A stretch of 64,000 bases of DNA from Thermoplasmata archaeon (GTDB lineage: Archaea; Thermoplasmatota; Thermoplasmata; UBA10834): NCBI GenBank assembly GCA_035529455.1, contig DATKWQ010000052.1, positions 5,966-69,965 on the forward strand, written 5' to 3'. Within the stretch, counting starts at the first letter, position 1. The number at the start of each line of letters is the position of its first letter. The notes beneath the pieces are model-generated. The model worked only from the letters and a program-made list of their open reading frames with translations. It searched no databases and had not been told where the DNA came from. Positions 7,419-61,291 of this stretch are shown here, one piece after another. Made by a program: the position numbers and the translations under genes.

Positions 7419-7813
7419 TCCTCTTTCTTCTCCTCTTTGTTGATGAGTTCGGAGACCGGCTTCGCGCCGTGCTGTGTGACTTTCAGATTGACCTGGACGG
7501 TGTCGGGAGAGACTGCGTTACCCCTGAAGCTCTTCTTCTTCCTCAGGCCCTTCTCCTCTGACCGGAAGCCTATGCTCTTGGAGACCAGTAGCCTCTTTCT
7601 CCGGGGGCCTGGAAGGTCTTTCCTCATGGGGAATCCGTCCTTGTCGCTCCCACCAGTAATCATGAGCTTATACCCCGGAAGTCCGACGAAGATGCCGTCT
7701 ATGATGTCGCCGATCCTCTTGCCGATCAGCGAGTTCGCATGGTGTCCCGTAACGGGAGCCTGATAAGACTTTCCGTCCTTCGTATCATTTATGACGGCTC
7801 TGAAATCTGCCAC
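7415..7813 (-). CDS. rps6e: 30S ribosomal protein S6e
   Basis: The C-terminal 130 aa of ORF 7415..8056 match S6e ([12 protein letters not shown]...[15 protein letters not shown]...). The upstream part of the ORF is not protein-like, so the start is placed at a GTG (7811-7813). Confidence 0.8.
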
Positions 7814-7913
7814 ACAATCCACTCCGGTATAGCAGGACGCCCTAATGCGCAAGGAGTTATATAGGTTTCGGGAGCGAAATCCCTCCCTGGAACGATTGCG
7901 TTCCGGGCGCGGA

Positions 7914-9698
7914 TCAGCTTCCCCAGAACGGGTTTTCCTTCCGCCGTATCGCCACGACCTTGTCGAGAACCTCTGTCTCGTCGAACGACAGCTTCTGCTC
8001 CAAGAGCTGTCTCGCGTGGCCTTCGGGTATGTCCACGAACAGCACGTCCTCGACATCTATCTGCCTGCCGACGGTGGCGTCGTCTATGGCAATGGCCACC
8101 TCGTCGCCCATCTTGGCCTCGCGCATGGTCTTTTCCCCGCTCCTGATGCTCTTTATGCGGCCAACCGTCTTGCCGTCCACTCTCATGAGCGACTGGCCCT
8201 GCCGTATCCTCCCCGCCAGGACGCGTACACCGACGATGGCGGGCTTGCTGACCCTGAACACATGGTCTCGGAGGATGGACACTTTCCCGGGGAATGAGAT
8301 GTCAAGCCTGCTCTGGGCCTCCAGCTCCTTCGTGCGTTCCTCGCACCACAGGTCGTAATCTTCCAGGAGTCTGTAGACGACCTTGTTCTCGAATAGCGTG
8401 ACCCCGGTCTCTCGGGCCGCGTCGCGGGCGTCTGGATTGACCTCGACGTTGAACGCGAACAGTGCTCTGTGAAGGGGGTTGTCGAAATTAGATGCCTCCA
8501 TGACATCCTTCCTGGACACGTTCCCCATATCGATCTTCCTTATAGGCAGCTCCGCGTTCTTGGCCTCGAACGCAAGGGCTTCGAGCGAGCCGATGGTATC
8601 GCCCCTGACGATTATGCCCTGGTCGGAGAGTTCTGCTCGTATGCAGCTCTCCTTCTCGACCTCGCAGATGACCTCCTCGAGGTTATCGGCGACGACGCGC
8701 ACCTGCCCTCCAGCCATGGCGTCCACGAGATTGGGCGCCACTATCCTGATGCCAGCAGCGGCTGAGACGGACTTGACCTTGTCAAAACGCTGGCTTGGGT
8801 CCCTTATCTCGTCAAGTGGCCTGGGCCGAAGAAGGGCGCGTATCTTGGTCTGAATCGGCTCCCCCTTCGTCGATGATATGACGATGAGGTCGCCGACGCT
8901 CATCGTCCCTCTGTAGATTATCGTGTCTATCGCGGTCCCTATCCCCTTGTCCTCCTTGACTTCCAGGACGGACCCCTCGCCGGGGCCCTCCTCGGTGCTT
9001 AGGTCGGAGCCAAGGAACCTCTGGGCAAGGCCTATGAGCATGAGCAGCAGATCAGGCAGGCCCTCCCCGGTCTTGCCACTGACGGGTACGATCGCCACCG
9101 ACTTGGTGAAATCGTTGATCTTGTCGAACCTGTCCGCGCTGAAACCGCCGATCTCGTACATCCTGCCAGCGAGCGCGTAAATCTTGTCGTCGAGCTCGGA
9201 GACGACGCGGGGGTCCTGCGCCTGGAGCGATACGCCGATAGGCTTGTCCGCCTGGGCCCGCCATCCTGGTATCAGGTCGATCTTGTTCGCCGCGATGACG
9301 AACGGTGTCTTCAGTTTCTTGAGTATATGTATCGACTCGACCGTCTGGGGCTTCATACCCTCGTTGATGTCAATCACGAGCACGACGAGGTCGGCCAACG
9401 CGCCGCCCCTGCTCCGCAGGCTCACGAACGAGTAGTGGCCTGGCGTGTCGATGAACAGGAGGCCAGGCACGCTGAACTTCCGGTCGCCGATCAGGCTCTG
9501 GCACTGAGCGTATATCGCATCGATAGGGACGTCCGTGGCTCCGATGTGCTGAGTGATGCCTCCCGCCTCTCTGGACACCACCTTGGTACCCCTGATGCGG
9601 TCAAGGATTGTCGACTTGCCATGGTCAACATGGCCAAGTACGGATACTATCGGCTGTCTAATAGGCACGGATTCGCCAAAGGCTGAACGGTATATCAA
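7914..9698 (-). CDS. infB: translation initiation factor aIF5B (IF-2 homolog)
   Basis: 594 aa, with VLGHVDHGKSTILD in the G-domain and the aIF5B domain order. No intein. Confidence 0.95.
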   Translation of the reverse strand: MIYRSAFGESVPIRQPIVSVLGHVDHGKSTILDRIRGTKVVSREAGGITQHIGATDVPIDAIYAQCQSLIGDRKFSVPGLLFIDTPGHYSFVSLRSRGGALADLVVLVIDINEGMKPQTVESIHILKKLKTPFVIAANKIDLIPGWRAQADKPIGVSLQAQDPRVVSELDDKIYALAGRMYEIGGFSADRFDKINDFTKSVAIVPVSGKTGEGLPDLLLMLIGLAQRFLGSDLSTEEGPGEGSVLEVKEDKGIGTAIDTIIYRGTMSVGDLIVISSTKGEPIQTKIRALLRPRPLDEIRDPSQRFDKVKSVSAAAGIRIVAPNLVDAMAGGQVRVVADNLEEVICEVEKESCIRAELSDQGIIVRGDTIGSLEALAFEAKNAELPIRKIDMGNVSRKDVMEASNFDNPLHRALFAFNVEVNPDARDAARETGVTLFENKVVYRLLEDYDLWCEERTKELEAQSRLDISFPGKVSILRDHVFRVSKPAIVGVRVLAGRIRQGQSLMRVDGKTVGRIKSIRSGEKTMREAKMGDEVAIAIDDATVGRQIDVEDVLFVDIPEGHARQLLEQKLSFDETEVLDKVVAIRRKENPFWGS

Positions 9699-54094: not shown

Positions 54095-54167
54095 GGGCCC
54101 ATGGTCTAGCGGTTATGACGGCGCTCTCACACAGCGCAGATCACCGGTTCAAATCCGGTTGGGCCCA
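54095..54167 (+). tRNA. tRNA-Val (anticodon CAC), 3' CCA not encoded
   Basis: Manually folded cloverleaf. Acceptor GGGCCCA/UGGGCCC, anticodon stem GCGCU/AGCGC with loop CUCACAC, T-arm ACCGG-UUCAAAU-CCGGU, discriminator A. The D-stem has one U-U mismatch. Confidence 0.8.
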
Positions 54168-54268
54168 CTCCATATCTCGAGTATGATTGTGGCCAACCGC
54201 CCATGAATGGGAGGCCTAGGCGACATTTATATAGAGCAGAAGGCGTCGGTTTCGCCAAGTGGTTTGAA

Positions 54269-56320
54269 ATGCGGGGAATCTCAAGACTCCCGGCAAGCCT
54301 GGTCGGATTCATGGTCATCATCACGACAGTGGCCATCGTCGCGAGCTCGCTCCCTGGGAATTCCAGCACAGCTAATCTGTCAACGGTCTCAATACAGGCG
54401 GAGTCAATGTGCCTCCTCTATGGCTGGGTGAATGATTCGATAACTCACGAAGGCGTGAGTGGGGCGACGGTCTTCTACATTTCGATGGAGGAGTTCTCAA
54501 CAAACCAAACCCTGACTGACGAGACAGGCTACTACGAAGCGCAGGTCGATCAGTCAGCCCTGTTCGTGCAGTGTTACAAGACCGGGCATTTCCCAGTCAC
54601 AGTGGCGATAAACACCACGGGAGAGGACGAGTATCGGCAGGACTTCGAACTGGAGGCCGAGCCGACGGTGCCTGAGGTTTCGATGGCCATCGACCCTGAA
54701 CGCAACATATCGGCCCACAACCCCCTGACGGTCAGCATTGTCGTGGAGGACTATAACCTGATTCTTGTAGAGGTCATCATGGGACAGGTACACAACAGAA
54801 CGGGCGATTGGGTCAATTTCACAACGGCAACCGCTGCGGGGGCCTTTATGTTTTCAGACTCCGTTGTTGACGGTATGTACTTCGAATACACCTATGAGGA
54901 CGATGTGTTCGAGGGGACTGCCGAATGGTACGCGAAGTCGACTCGTTCAGGATACCTGGTCAACGAGACATCGAGCGATTACAGTCAGGCATATGCCAAA
55001 CGGACGATTATGGGAGACGTCAGCTACGGTTTCGCCTGCTATTACTTCAACGACACCCTCTCGATGGAGGAGGGGATAGCATACTTCGACAACGACACGG
55101 GGGAGTACGAAGGGTTTGAGTCCCAGAGCCTCACGTCGGTCTTCGAGGACCCATCCATCCCGGATGCACCCGCGGATGACCCCTTCGGGGAGATCGCCCC
55201 GGTCTCGATCGTAATTCCATGGAAGCTGAACACCACCATGACCTTCGAGGAATACATGACGCTCACTGGCAACTTCGTCTGCAAGGACCGGAGGAGCGTT
55301 GCCGGGCTGACGTTCGAGTACGACGAGACCGTTCCCAGTGGTGAGTACGTCGCGATGGTCTTTGCGATAGACGACGCATTCAACCTCAACGGGACGGTTG
55401 GCCTTCTGACCGTCGACACCGACGACCCCATCGCATACGCCGGTGAAGACTCCACAATCGGGATTGGCGACGAGGCGACCTTGACAGGAGCGGCCTCCGA
55501 TAACGTCGGAGTGGTCAACTACACATGGGCCATCGAGGACGACGGTACGGAAGTCACCTTGCACGGAGAAGTCGTCTCCTACGAGTTCATCGATAAGGGC
55601 GAGCATGTCGTCACTTTGACCGTGCGCGACGGCGCGAACAACGAGGGCTCGGACACGGCGATCATCACGGTCGCCGACATCACAGACCCGACAGCAGACG
55701 CAGGCGAGGACATGGATGTCCTCATAGGCGAGACGTTCACGCTGAACGGCACGGGGTCTTACGATGACATAGGGATAACGGCGTACCTATGGTCGTGCGA
55801 TGAGCTAGACGGCTGGGACGAGAGTGGAGCCGAGGTGGAGATGACGCTCGACTCCGAAGGTGAGTACACCTTCACGCTCGAGACGAGGGACGCTGCGGGC
55901 AACTCCGACACCGATGACGTCATCGTCTACGTCACCGACCCGAACGAGGCGCCTGTCGCCGATGCGGGGACCGACCTTGAGATATCTGTCGGGGAGACGG
56001 CCGACCTCGACGGGTCGGGTTCGTCCGATGACGCGGGCATAGAGAACTACACCTGGACTTTCGAGTATGACGGAGAGACGGTGACGCTGTATGGGGAGAC
56101 CGCTGAATTCACATTCGACATCGAAGGCGAGTACACGGTAAACTTGACCGTCTCTGATGAGCAGGGGGAAAAGGGGTACGACCAGGTCGTGGTCACGGTG
56201 ACGAAGGGCGAGACCGTCACGGGTTACGCACTATACGCCGCCGCAATAATCATCGTGTTGGTGGTTGCCATTCTGGCCGTCGTGCTCATAAGGCGCAGGA
56301 AGCTCGTAGGCTCCTCCTGA
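54269..56320 (+). CDS. cell-surface protein: signal/TM anchor, CarboxypepD_reg-like domain, three tandem PKD domains, C-terminal TM + basic tail
   Basis: N-terminal hydrophobic segment, a beta-sandwich segment (GATVFY...TDETGYYEAQV), 3x ~87-aa repeats (DAG.D..V.VGET..L.G.GS.DD.GI.NYTW) and a C-terminal helix + RRRK. Start trimmed to the ATG at 54269 so that it clears the tRNA. Confidence 0.75.
   Translation: MRGISRLPASLVGFMVIITTVAIVASSLPGNSSTANLSTVSIQAESMCLLYGWVNDSITHEGVSGATVFYISMEEFSTNQTLTDETGYYEAQVDQSALFVQCYKTGHFPVTVAINTTGEDEYRQDFELEAEPTVPEVSMAIDPERNISAHNPLTVSIVVEDYNLILVEVIMGQVHNRTGDWVNFTTATAAGAFMFSDSVVDGMYFEYTYEDDVFEGTAEWYAKSTRSGYLVNETSSDYSQAYAKRTIMGDVSYGFACYYFNDTLSMEEGIAYFDNDTGEYEGFESQSLTSVFEDPSIPDAPADDPFGEIAPVSIVIPWKLNTTMTFEEYMTLTGNFVCKDRRSVAGLTFEYDETVPSGEYVAMVFAIDDAFNLNGTVGLLTVDTDDPIAYAGEDSTIGIGDEATLTGAASDNVGVVNYTWAIEDDGTEVTLHGEVVSYEFIDKGEHVVTLTVRDGANNEGSDTAIITVADITDPTADAGEDMDVLIGETFTLNGTGSYDDIGITAYLWSCDELDGWDESGAEVEMTLDSEGEYTFTLETRDAAGNSDTDDVIVYVTDPNEAPVADAGTDLEISVGETADLDGSGSSDDAGIENYTWTFEYDGETVTLYGETAEFTFDIEGEYTVNLTVSDEQGEKGYDQVVVTVTKGETVTGYALYAAAIIIVLVVAILAVVLIRRRKLVGSS
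55425..56210 (+). repeat. three tandem ~260-bp intragenic repeats encoding the PKD domains
   Basis: Protein-level repeats: IAYAGEDSTIGIGDEATLTGAASDNVGVVNYTW / ADAGEDMDVLIGETFTLNGTGSYDDIGITAYLW / ADAGTDLEISVGETADLDGSGSSDDAGIENYTW. Confidence 0.6.
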
Positions 56321-57740: not shown

Positions 57741-58805
57741 TCATTCGGTCTTGGACAGTCTGCGTACATGCCCGGAGACTGGAACATCCAGCTTCTGCTC
57801 CAACCGCGATATTCTGACGGCAAGTCTATCCATGTTATCCCTTAGGTCAGCGACCGCGAGGACCAACTCCTTGGAGATGTCGACTCGTTTCGATTGAGTG
57901 GTGTGGAGGTTCATCTCCATCAGCTTCATCCGCTCGTCCAAGGCTGTAAACCTGCTTCTCGTGGCCTCCGCGACAACGGGTTCCTGAGCAGCGACAATGC
58001 ATCTCTCGGCCTTCCTGTCCGAAGAAGACAACAAGACAGCAAGACCCTGGTTGATCTTCTCATCGATCATTCCGTGGAATTCCCCGAGGGTCTTGTTCAT
58101 TGAGAGTTCCAGCTTCTCGAGCGCTTCGTCCTGCGTCTCGACTTTCCTGATGACGTCCGTGAGATTGCCCAGGTCCCTGCATATATCCTCGAGCAGCTCG
58201 CGCTCCTTTACTTCGACCGATATCTCCACAGGCTCGGTCGGATAGTTCCTCAGCGACTCGACCATGGCGAGCATATCAACTTCTGGCCCAGAGTTCATCA
58301 CGGCGTCCCTGATAGGCTCCAGCCGCGTCATCTCAAGCTCTGCGAGCTTGAGCAGGCTCTTGTTTCCCTTCTCCACGCTCGTCAGCTCTGTGAGTATCTT
58401 CTCGAGCTGGGAGACCGCCTTCGCGAGATTGGAGTCCTCGAGCACCCTGACGCTCCTTACGGCGTCCTTCTTACCCTTGGCGATGGCATCCGCCACAGTC
58501 GGGTTCTCATGGGCGTACACAACGACCATGTGCGAGACTCCCGAGAGAGCCTTATTCTCCACATAGGACCAATCGCTCTCCCTTACGGATACTTTCTGCC
58601 GGTCCGCCCGCTCGAACAGCATGACGAAGCACTGATTGGGCATCAGGCAGATTTCGATTCCGTAAGGGCTGTTCCTCGCAAGCGCTGGAATGTGCTCTGG
58701 CCGCTCCCTGTCGACGGTGTTCAGAAAGGCGCCTATGTAGGCGTTCGCGTAGTTCTCAAGGGCGGTCTTGGTTAGCAGTCGCGTCTTGCCGTGTGATGTG
58801 GACAT
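57741..58805 (-). CDS. hypothetical protein: ~130-aa N-terminal globular domain + ~220-aa coiled-coil region
   Basis: Heptad-rich central and C-terminal part (LEKILTELTSVEKGNKSLLKLAELEMTRLE...). Start trimmed to the internal ATG (MSTSHGKTRLL) because the upstream 61 codons are Cys/Ser/Arg-rich and would overlap the divergent GTPase gene. Confidence 0.5.
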   Translation of the reverse strand: MSTSHGKTRLLTKTALENYANAYIGAFLNTVDRERPEHIPALARNSPYGIEICLMPNQCFVMLFERADRQKVSVRESDWSYVENKALSGVSHMVVVYAHENPTVADAIAKGKKDAVRSVRVLEDSNLAKAVSQLEKILTELTSVEKGNKSLLKLAELEMTRLEPIRDAVMNSGPEVDMLAMVESLRNYPTEPVEISVEVKERELLEDICRDLGNLTDVIRKVETQDEALEKLELSMNKTLGEFHGMIDEKINQGLAVLLSSSDRKAERCIVAAQEPVVAEATRSRFTALDERMKLMEMNLHTTQSKRVDISKELVLAVADLRDNMDRLAVRISRLEQKLDVPVSGHVRRLSKTE

Positions 58806-58960
58806 GTACCCAGCCCGGTATTGAGAATATGTACTATTGAGCTTTTGCCTATGGTTTCCATAGTAAGAAATATGTAGACTCCAGCGCATGAGACCACTGC
58901 GACAACGACTGTGAGAACGCAATTCGCTGACGCAACAGGAACGGTCAATTCTGAACTCTG

Positions 58961-59791
58961 GTGATGTGTGTGAGCATAATCCAGTCAAAGCGTTACATCA
59001 AGAAGGTCGGGCTGATCGGCGATTCTGGCGTGGGGAAGACTTCGCTGATCCGGAGATACGTCGTCGACGTGTTCGATGACAAGTACATAGCCACGATAGG
59101 GACGAAGGTGAGCAAACGCGACATCGAGTACAAGCTCGAGGACAAGACCGTGTATCTCACGCTAATGCTATGGGATATACTCGGTCAGAAGGACTACAAG
59201 AAAATCAGGAACCAGAGCATGAGGAGCGCTCATGGCGTCATCATTGCGTCCGACCTAAGCAGACCCGAGACGGTGACTTCCGCAGCGAAGTTCTGGCTTA
59301 AAGAGGCTTGGGAGACCTTGGGAGAGGTGCCAGTCGTATTCGTAGGCAACAAGGTCGACGTAGCTGGAATCGATTGTGAGGCCGCGAAAGAGCTGGAGCG
59401 GATAGCAGAGGAGATTGGGATGCCATTGGTCTTCTGCAGCGCGAAGACGGGAGAGAACGTGGAAAACGCCTTCCGCCGGATCGGGGAGATGATGATATCA
59501 GGCGAGTTCTCCCGCAAGGCGGTTGTTGCCGAAGGAGAATGCGGCTCGCTGGCCCAGGCAGTCGACGAGATCGTTAACGACTTCTGCGAGCAGCATGGTG
59601 AGACCGCGAAGGCGATGGAGATCGTAGAGAAGGAATTCATGAAGGCGAGCATCGACATACATAAACCAACGAAGGATTCCATCCTGATGGCCATCGAGTA
59701 CCTGTCAGATGTCGAGCGGGACATACACGGCAGGGACGTCTCGGAAGTCAACAAACTGAGACGATGGAAGATGATAGACGAGGTGGAATAG
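58961..59791 (+). CDS. Ras-superfamily small GTPase (Rab/Ras-like G domain) with ~110-aa C-terminal helical extension
   Basis: All five G motifs are in canonical order and spacing: G1 GDSGVGKT, G2 YIATIGT, G3 WDILGQ, G4 GNKVD, G5 CSAK. Confidence 0.8.
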   Translation: MMCVSIIQSKRYIKKVGLIGDSGVGKTSLIRRYVVDVFDDKYIATIGTKVSKRDIEYKLEDKTVYLTLMLWDILGQKDYKKIRNQSMRSAHGVIIASDLSRPETVTSAAKFWLKEAWETLGEVPVVFVGNKVDVAGIDCEAAKELERIAEEIGMPLVFCSAKTGENVENAFRRIGEMMISGEFSRKAVVAEGECGSLAQAVDEIVNDFCEQHGETAKAMEIVEKEFMKASIDIHKPTKDSILMAIEYLSDVERDIHGRDVSEVNKLRRWKMIDEVE

Positions 59792-59838: not shown

Positions 59839-60432
59839 ATGAAGAAGCAGTTGGAGATGACGCTCCAGCGGCTGAAGCCTGTCGATGACAGGAACCCCCG
59901 TCTGGAACAGTATCCGACACCCGCGGGCATAGCGGCGGACATTCTGTGGGAGGCACACGGGGCGGGAGACATCGAAGGGAAGGCCGTGGCGGACCTAGGA
60001 TGCGGCAACGGCGTGTTCTGCATCGGGGCGGCTTTGCTCGGGGCTACGCGAGCTGTGGGAGTCGATATCGACGAACGTGCTGTCAGTATAGCCTCTCAGA
60101 ACGCCAAGAACCTGTCCCTGGACATCGATTTCATCTCGATGGAGGTTTCTGCGTTTACTGGATCTTTTGACACGACGGTCCAGAACCCACCTTTTGGGGC
60201 ACAATTCAGGCACGCTGACAGGGCATTCGTGGAGAAGGCCATCGAGATATCCCCCGTGGCCTATTCCCTTCACAATGAGGTCACAATCGGCTTCATGACC
60301 AAGATGGCGAAATCCATGGGAGCCACATGCGTGCCGGTCAAAAGGTATAAATTCGAGATACCATATGCGTTCGAATTTCACAGAAAGGCCAAAGAAGTCG
60401 TTTCGGTCGTTCTGCTCAAGTTCCAAAAATAG
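59839..60432 (+). CDS. METTL5-like class-I SAM methyltransferase (NPPF motif, N6-adenine/amino-MTase type)
   Basis: Motif I VADLGCGNGVF and motif IV VQNPPFG. Start trimmed to MKKQLEMT. Confidence 0.75.
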   Translation: MKKQLEMTLQRLKPVDDRNPRLEQYPTPAGIAADILWEAHGAGDIEGKAVADLGCGNGVFCIGAALLGATRAVGVDIDERAVSIASQNAKNLSLDIDFISMEVSAFTGSFDTTVQNPPFGAQFRHADRAFVEKAIEISPVAYSLHNEVTIGFMTKMAKSMGATCVPVKRYKFEIPYAFEFHRKAKEVVSVVLLKFQK

Positions 60433-61008
60433 GTGATTAAGCTGGCTAAGACCGGGAAGCGAGTCCTGCCGGGAGACGAGGTTGCCCAGGCAGAAGAGTA
60501 CATGGCGGGAGAGGGCACCTACGAGGACAAAGACGGCAAGATATACTCGAGCGCCGTCGGCGAACTCGACGTTGACGAAAGGGAGAAGATCGTCAAGATA
60601 GCCCCTGACAACCCCCCAATCGTACTCATCGAAGGAGACACCGTGATAGCGAATGTCACTGACGTGAAGCCGGCGATGGTAATCTGCATGATCGTCTCCC
60701 AGGAAGGCAAGGTCCGGGAGGTCTCGAGCGAGAACCTCGCAGCAATCCATATCTCCAAGATATCCAGTTCTTATGTCGACGACGCTGCAGACCTCATGCG
60801 ACCTGGTGACATCATGAGGGCAAAGGTCATCCAGGCATTGCCGTCTGTCCAGCTCACGACATCAGGCCCACATCTTGGCGTGATCAGGGCGCTTTGCTCC
60901 TCCTGCCGCATGCCACTGGAGAAGAAGGGCGACGAGCTCTACTGTAAAAGGTGTGAGCGCACAGAGACCCGGAAGATATCGGACGATTACCGCGATTTCG
61001 AGATATGA
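60433..61008 (+). CDS. csl4: exosome complex RNA-binding subunit Csl4 (S1 domain + C-terminal Zn-ribbon)
   Basis: N-terminal beta-domain, an S1 fold and a C-terminal CSSC....CKRC zinc ribbon. Confidence 0.85.
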   Translation: MIKLAKTGKRVLPGDEVAQAEEYMAGEGTYEDKDGKIYSSAVGELDVDEREKIVKIAPDNPPIVLIEGDTVIANVTDVKPAMVICMIVSQEGKVREVSSENLAAIHISKISSSYVDDAADLMRPGDIMRAKVIQALPSVQLTTSGPHLGVIRALCSSCRMPLEKKGDELYCKRCERTETRKISDDYRDFEI

Positions 61009-61291
61009 GACAAAAACGCTAAATCAGCGAGCAGCAATAGGCTCGATTGGAAGGGGGGGGTTTCATTGAAAGGGAAGGATGAAGACATTCTACAGGAGAT
61101 AGACCGGCTCAGAGAGGATGTGAAACAGCTCCGAGAAGTCGTGAACATACTGGTCAATGTCGTCATGGAAGACGACCTCGACGAGGATGAAGAGGAATTC
61201 TCAACCTTCGCGACCAAGGAGAACCGGTTCAACCTGCTCAACTAAGGAACACGACTGTCCCGCTCGTTCGAGCTCAAGGGGTATGTGAGCA

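Follow-up and report, generated by a model that had tools for sequence, protein, structure and literature searches.

A Ras/Rab-like small GTPase gene paired divergently with a coiled-coil protein gene in uncultivated Thermoplasmata

The 64,000-nt stretch analysed here (the window), part of contig DATKWQ010000052.1 of a Thermoplasmata archaeon, carries two divergently oriented genes, one encoding a small GTPase of the Ras superfamily and the other a 354-aa coiled-coil protein, hereafter called the partner. Both are present as claimed in an earlier note made on this DNA, and neither has a second copy in the window. The interpretation favoured here, with a probability of roughly one half, is that they constitute a conserved two-gene module of uncultivated Thermoplasmata, in which a GTP switch acts on or through a coiled-coil scaffold. 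No description of such a GTPase/coiled-coil module was found in literature searches.

Residues of the GTPase are numbered along the 276-aa open reading frame (ORF) that is open from position 58961. The complete Ras-superfamily G domain proposed in the earlier note is borne out by motifs and by family scores. G1 (GDSGVGKT, residues 20-27), G2 (T45 in YIATIGT), G3 (WDILGQ, with D72 and Q76), G4 (NKVD, 130-133) and G5 (SAK, 160-162) follow one another in canonical order, and the protein scores above the curated cut-offs of both Pfam Ras (PF00071; 116.3 bits, E 1.3e-33, cut-off 21.6) and TIGR00231 small_GTP (71.6 bits, E 6.2e-20, cut-off 42.5). Homologues are 63-100% identical and mostly 271-276 aa long, with one (P0106) being 100% identical. 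In 39 of them W71, D72, L74-Q76, N130, K131, D133, S160, A161 and T163 are invariant and G25-T27, T45 and K162 nearly so, most G-motif residues being either invariant or at least 90% conserved. Among PDB sequences, a Thorarchaeota Rab (7EZB, E 1.5e-24) and Rab1A/B come closest, and the protein has the Ras-like fold, the AlphaFold2 (AF2) model built with the 39 homologues reaching a predicted local distance difference test (pLDDT) score of 79 and a predicted template modelling score of 0.75. A GTPase that is catalytically complete in this way should cycle between GTP and GDP states via its very conserved switch I and switch II.

The similarity to Rab proteins has its limits. Compared with Rab, Ras and Rho members of PF00071 (Thorarchaeota Rab 7EZB, Rab1, Rab3C), the protein lacks most of the RabF motifs. 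In the Rab1B alignment IGTKV stands for IGVDF, LMLW for KLQIW, YKKIRN for RFRTIT, SMRSA for YYRGA and IASDLS for VVYDVT, with only one or two identical positions in each of the RabF1-RabF5 motifs. Moreover, unlike eukaryotic and Asgard Rabs, no aligned homologue has a prenylatable C-terminal Cys (the window GTPase ends in ...RRWKMIDEVE), and a private four-helix domain replaces the hypervariable tail, in keeping with the earlier view that a helical domain stands where a prenylation box would be expected. Judged by its sequence, the protein is best described as Ras/Rab-like and not as a bona fide Rab. As regards other families, the Arf/Sar combination of an N-terminal amphipathic helix with an Arf-type profile as best match was not found, and despite a match to the Roc profile (E 7.7e-25) the G domain is followed by no detectable counterpart of the COR domain of Roco proteins. 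No equivalog profile of Obg, HflX, EngA, YqeH or EF-G reaches its cut-off (15-17 bits against 280-583 for Obg, EngA, YqeH and EF-G), which places the G domain outside these housekeeping families, as had been anticipated. The MglA-MglB system resembles the present one in that a dedicated partner gene lies next to that of a small GTPase; here, however, G3 is DxxGQ and not of the MglA type, and no adjacent Roadblock/LC7 (MglB) gene was found, since sequence, predicted topology and fold search all show the partner head not to be Roadblock.

Two start codons come into question for the GTPase, GTG 58970 (273 aa) and ATG 58964. The former is most likely the one used, because most homologues, including the identical P0106, have about 273 aa, and it is preceded by a Shine-Dalgarno-like GGTGAT at 58960-58965; ATG 58964 is the alternative. 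At the other end of the protein, AF2 predicts a disordered linker (181-196) followed by four helices (197-273), so that the helical tail described earlier is real, with about 80 structured residues rather than the ~110 attributed to it. No other part of the GTPase is as conserved as this tail (82% mean column identity, 37 invariant columns), which contains the motif ...SEVNKLRRWKMIDE and ends in ...NKLRRWKMIDE. Searches of PDB sequences, Pfam and NCBIfam gave no significant match to it. Its high conservation suggests a fixed macromolecular interface, and the four-helix domain may be a constitutive docking or targeting module. Homology between this tail and the partner rod was ruled out (hhalign probability 0.5%), and a transmembrane (TM) helix is present neither in the GTPase nor in the window partner.

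The partner start at 58805 was confirmed, because most of the closer homologues share its length of about 354 aa and can be aligned with it from the first residue. The 105 homologues bear hypothetical or generic coiled-coil-type labels, and their named sources are metagenome-assembled genomes (MAGs) of Thermoplasmata/Thermoplasmatota. Zn-ribbon/NrdR labels on some of them were taken as coiled-coil artefacts, because the alignment shows no N-terminal extension and the extra length lies in the rod region. The partner has no significant match in Pfam or NCBIfam (no family at E <= 0.01), PADLOC or PHROG. That it is a fragment of an SMC-like or archaellum accessory protein, a possibility raised at the outset, is contradicted by this lack of any family match and by conservation at a full length of ~350 aa in many homologues. 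In its AF2 model (pLDDT 75.6 overall, 84-93 in the head) the elements of the globular head, modelled at ~13-124, come in the order alpha-(alpha)-beta-beta-beta-alpha-beta-alpha, and long helices follow up to residue 338. The head residues invariant in alignment A1 are G25, E34, P36, P40, P56, N57, V94, H99, E100, T103, A105, G111, K112, D114, A115, E123 and S125; the segment HMVVVYAHENPTVADAIAKGKK, to which the earlier note had drawn attention, turned out to be the invariant head core (H99, E100, T103, G111, K112, D114). The likeness to Roadblock or longin regulators that had been read into this segment did not hold up. The Roadblock fold has the order alpha-beta-beta-alpha-beta-beta-beta, from which, as from that of longin, the order predicted for the head differs; neither Robl_LC7 nor longin Pfam families match the partner, and a profile search of PDB sequences returned nothing. 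Two other identities were considered for the head and rejected. A PD-(D/E)xK nuclease fold, considered for the alpha-beta-beta-beta-alpha-beta order, lacked both the D...(D/E)xK motif and a fold match. A degenerate P-loop/G domain at an N-terminal 'SHGKT', an idea that arose from a weak centaurin match (E 0.086), was dismissed on the grounds that the motif is not conserved and that hhalign gives the head a 0.1% probability against the GTPase family. The heptad-rich coiled coil of ~220 aa that had been proposed for the remainder of the partner was sustained in its periodicity, which over residues 125-340 scores 0.447 against 0.347 ± 0.032 in shuffles (~3 standard deviations), and not in its continuity. 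The rod is segmented, with heptad-rich parts at 127-168, 197-238 and 309-336 and a Pro-rich break at ~169-196 between the first two.

The linkage of the two genes is strict. When each GTDB species was represented by a single genome, a scan yielded 39 loci, 38 of them with the window's type of partner (type A), and in 38/38 of these the GTPase lies immediately upstream in divergent orientation, with spacers of ~150-310 bp; an assembly gap interrupts one locus (L002), and contig ends interrupt two (L012 and L029). In the reverse direction, 6 GTPase homologues led to 8 places, and the partner was present at every one of them, meaning that the adjacency noted in the window is kept in relatives. 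An apparently truncated GTPase in L002 proved to be a run of N. In that complete-chromosome MAG (CP070736.1) the run, at ~9350-9450, interrupts the GTPase gene at residue ~122 and puts corrinoid-protein-like genes next to it, which is probably a scaffolding artefact. Throughout the loci the pair belongs to the syntenic block ThiI-ThiF-SHMT-(59 aa)-Csl4-MTase-GTPase<>partner, in which SHMT is serine hydroxymethyltransferase and MTase a methyltransferase. The far flank of the partner is variable, eIF2B being 0.2-9.7 kb off or absent, and some genomes whose array is interrupted downstream of SHMT still have an intact pair.

Beyond these orthologues the partner head defines a small family, its profile retrieving only 34 clusters among 1.84 billion representative proteins, with all named members from Thermoplasmatota. 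The closer paralogue types (P0231-P0236, P0237-P0239 and the L037 protein) are soluble and have short basic tails. The distant paralogues consist of one head or two tandem heads, a coiled coil and then either a C-terminal TM helix (P0240, P0241, P0243, P0244, P0248, P0249, P0253, P0256) or a polybasic tail (P0245, P0252, P0254). In P0240, P0241, P0243, P0244, P0248 and P0253 the two tandem heads are each followed by a conserved NPWLE motif, ahead of the coiled coil and the TM helix, and this tandem-head, tail-anchored architecture is limited to Thermoplasmatota among named members. The type-B paralogues P0233 (605 aa) and P0235 (585 aa) have long internal rod repeats (for example '...PDPR(I/V)...' in P0235), expansions which suggest that rod length is evolvable.

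In the mechanism proposed, both genes would be transcribed divergently from back-to-back promoters. The GTPase would be joined by its flexible linker to the private four-helix docking or targeting domain, and the partner would serve as a scaffold, helical and probably dimeric, whose alpha/beta head is an orphan. Binding of the GTPase to the scaffold would then control the assembly, location or activity of the latter in a nucleotide-dependent manner, much as Rab/Arl GTPases work via coiled-coil effectors and tethers or with coiled-coil exchange factors such as Sec2. The likeness to these tethers and to Sec2, a Ras-like switch with a long coiled-coil protein, is one of functional analogy only: no homology of the partner was detectable, be it with golgins, with Sec2 or with a solved structure. 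Action at the membrane would be likely, since tail anchors or polybasic tails characterise the wider scaffold family. The role as a cytoskeletal or membrane-remodelling switch suggested in the earlier note is a hypothesis, with the tails of the distant paralogues as its one indirect support. The analysis shows the G domain with its motifs intact, the novelty and conservation of the two accessory domains and the strict linkage of the genes. The favoured picture also draws on the integrity of the pair where its surroundings vary, on the conservation of the GTPase and, for co-regulation, on conserved promoter-like blocks for the two genes inside a single AT-rich spacer of 164 bp. That the two proteins interact physically, which of them regulates the other and where they act is what we infer from these features.

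Several observations weigh against this picture of a GTP switch working on a scaffold. The neighbourhood is syntenic all the way from ThiI to the partner, and adjacency alone is therefore weak evidence. Co-evolution speaks for the picture, in that a mirror-tree analysis of seven syntenic genes placed the GTPase-partner pair at the top of 21 pairs in both raw (0.81) and partial (0.49) correlation; this result is suggestive and not conclusive, as it comes from non-independent distances and only 24 taxa. A TM helix is absent from the window partner, whose tail is only weakly basic. No Ras-like GTPase lies within the flanks of the L037 paralogue or of the distant ones (L040-L046), and the scaffold family therefore has no intrinsic need of a GTPase. 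Finally, the packing of the GTPase gene against those of MTase and Csl4 suggests another functional context. Beside one of the GTPase-less paralogues (L037), a gene of the archaeal flagellin/pilin family (PF01917) lies at 7724-8350 on the minus strand of that locus and, with two helix-turn-helix regulators, falls within 2.5 kb.

The last of these points leads to the alternative that survives best, namely that the GTPase works with the co-directional MTase (rRNA/tRNA-type) and Csl4 in RNA processing or ribosome biogenesis, the coiled-coil gene being a frozen syntenic neighbour. The GTPase is indeed the first gene of a tight array with MTase and Csl4, a feature absent from the earlier note. GTPase, MTase and Csl4 keep this order at each locus with a long enough flank, and the three genes are tightly packed at all loci; read in the direction of transcription, the block runs GTPase-MTase-Csl4-(59 aa)-SHMT-ThiF-ThiI. 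At eight loci, 14-42 nt separate the called GTPase and MTase genes; Csl4 overlaps or directly adjoins the MTase gene in most of these, L050 and L053 having spacings of 30 and 69 nt. No oligo-T run separates the three genes in the window, and the MTase-Csl4 pair is probably co-transcribed with the GTPase. GTPase conservation is moreover at the level of Csl4 and SHMT, that is, at housekeeping level, and the whole block is syntenic. Archaeal operons, however, often mix unrelated housekeeping genes. This alternative is rated as rather unlikely on two grounds. The G domain belongs to the Ras/Rab-like kind and not to that of ribosome GTPases (profiles of Obg, EngA and YqeH match only at E ~0.003-0.006, far below cut-offs), and co-evolution with these neighbours is weaker, the partial correlations of the GTPase being 0.15 with MTase and 0.29 with Csl4 against the higher value with the partner.

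A slightly more doubtful alternative keeps the pair and changes the role of its second member, the partner being a dedicated GTPase-activating protein or guanine nucleotide exchange factor of the GTPase, analogous to MglB/Roadblock or Sec2, and not its effector. The strict linkage would fit such a regulator, as would the head residues H99, E100, T103, G111 and K112, which are specific to the GTPase-linked clade, and coiled-coil exchange factors do exist in eukaryotes (Sec2/Rabin8). On the other hand, the element order of the head is unlike those of Roadblock and longin, the GTPase has its own catalytic Gln76, and the most conserved head motif, DAxRDxR, is also found in paralogues without a GTPase neighbour.

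It is very improbable that the module belongs, as a divergent form, to the ArvA/ArvB/ArvC vesiculation system. ArvA shows that small GTPases drive the production of extracellular vesicles in Euryarchaeota and do so with conserved neighbours (PMC10927574), and both systems thus involve a euryarchaeal small GTPase, conserved neighbours and a possible membrane role. Yet Haloferax volcanii ArvA is Arf-like (PF00025/PF01926), the survey of ArvA homologues was confined to proteins of <=250 aa, and arvA is immediately followed by arvB (DUF2073), with arvC (DUF2072) nearby (PMC10927574). None of these features is found here, where the best family is Ras PF00071, the protein has 273 aa with an extra domain, a methyltransferase gene lies downstream, and the partner is divergently oriented and matches neither DUF2073 nor DUF2072. 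A defence system or mobile-element cargo is scarcely credible: small NTPase and coiled-coil pairs do occur in some defence systems, but the GTPase has no PADLOC match and a single weak PHROG match (E 0.0012), its position is fixed in a core housekeeping neighbourhood in 38 species, and its conservation is at housekeeping level.

The closest known systems also include Rup and the isolated archaeal Rab-like proteins, likewise prokaryotic Ras-like GTPases, which lack an MglB neighbour and have G motifs like those of eukaryotes. In bacteria, group 1 Rup genes adjoin a gene for a predicted coiled-coil protein, and their products lack the catalytic Gln (Wuichet & Sogaard-Andersen 2014, PMC4316618). 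The coiled-coil neighbour is common to these and the present GTPase; the Gln is present only here. Single Rab-like genes with short C-termini were described in 'Thermoplasmatales archaeon' and Aciduliprofundum (Surkont & Pereira-Leal 2016, PMC4915359). For the archaeal Rab-like members of these surveys, the former of which left out proteins of >240 aa, neither a C-terminal helical domain nor a conserved partner was reported.

It is characteristic of eukaryotic cell organisation that Ras/Rab-like switches have dedicated partners, and outside Asgard archaea ArvABC is the only characterised archaeal small-GTPase system found in the literature consulted. If the favoured interpretation is true, the module adds a distinct Rab-like GTPase with housekeeping-level conservation, an extremely conserved docking domain and an orphan coiled-coil partner. 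It would offer a tractable route to the role of Ras-like GTPases in non-Asgard archaea, both proteins being small and soluble and hence suited to recombinant biochemistry, and would bear on whether the GTPase-plus-coiled-coil logic arose more than once. A bolder version, which must be considered improbable, would see here a second system by which Euryarchaeota organise membranes with a small GTPase, one that is independent of ArvA and in which a Rab-like switch recruits or releases a tether descended from tail-anchored membrane proteins. This would be a non-Asgard analogue of Rab/Arl-golgin logic, with both accessory domains being new folds or interaction modules.

Table 1. Features of the gene pair and its immediate surroundings (positions in the window)
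Feature	Position	Strand	Basis
Ras/Rab-like small GTPase gene, 273 aa	58970..59791	+	Pfam Ras E 1.3e-33, TIGR00231 6.2e-20
G domain, residues 8-180, G1-G5 and catalytic Gln76	58982..59500	+	
GTPase linker, residues 181-196, variable, predicted disordered	59501..59548	+	pLDDT < 50 at 184-195; variable columns in alignment A2
GTPase four-helix domain, residues 197-276, family-specific, most conserved part, no Cys box	59549..59788	+	
Partner gene, 354 aa: globular head, segmented coiled coil, short basic tail	57741..58805	-	
Partner head, residues 9-128	58422..58781	-	AF2 pLDDT 84-93; alignments A1, A3
Partner helical rod, residues ~126-338	57792..58430	-	AF2 helices, heptad score
Partner C-terminal tail (LDVPVSGHVRRLSKTE), short, weakly basic, no TM helix	57744..57791	-	
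AT-rich divergent control region, 164 bp	58806..58969	.	Alignment with 8 related loci, GC
Class I S-adenosylmethionine methyltransferase (59839-60432), then exosome cap subunit Csl4 (60433-61008)	59839..61008	+	Pfam MTS/PrmA, ECR1_N

The spacer between the two genes is AT-rich, as stated earlier. Its 155 bp have 46.5% GC compared with 57.3% for the window, a value within the bottom 0.6% for segments of 155 bp, and the core has 31% GC. Two blocks in it are (nearly) invariant across 8 related loci and, by the archaeal promoter consensus, may correspond to TFB recognition element/TATA box promoters, one for the partner (58835-58848, in minus sense GCAAAAGCTCAATA) and one for the GTPase (58863-58881, GTAAGAAATATGTAGACTC). 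A conserved ATGAGA (58888-58893) follows the GTPase-side block at ~15 nt and is a possible transcription start. The ATG in the GTPase leader was ruled out as a conserved upstream ORF, the corresponding peptides differing in length and sequence, and more likely belongs to a transcription start region. Between the promoter-like blocks lies a palindrome, TATGGTTTCCATA (58850-58862), which is found in the window only, with a partial copy in L001, and the partner-side upstream region (58819-58841) contains a CTCAATA direct repeat; both may be regulator sites.

Further along the array, Csl4 carries a C-terminal Zn ribbon, and between it and SHMT lies a conserved acidic helical ORF of 59 aa (MKGKDEDILQEIDRLREDVKQLREVV...; 61066-61245, plus strand), at whose position a gene of 58-66 aa is called in every relative looked up, with no precomputed Pfam match in those. 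One MAG carrying the gene pair, RBG_13_57_23 (L036), is among the MAGs of a study on non-methanogenic clades basal to Methanomassiliicoccales. On the other side of the pair, a tRNA-Val(CAC) gene (54095-54168, plus strand), the only hit of an Rfam scan, is followed by a gene for a 705-aa PKD-repeat protein (54203-56320, plus strand) with a hydrophobic end (...AAIIIVLVVAILAVVLI...), probably a surface protein, and this region varies between relatives.

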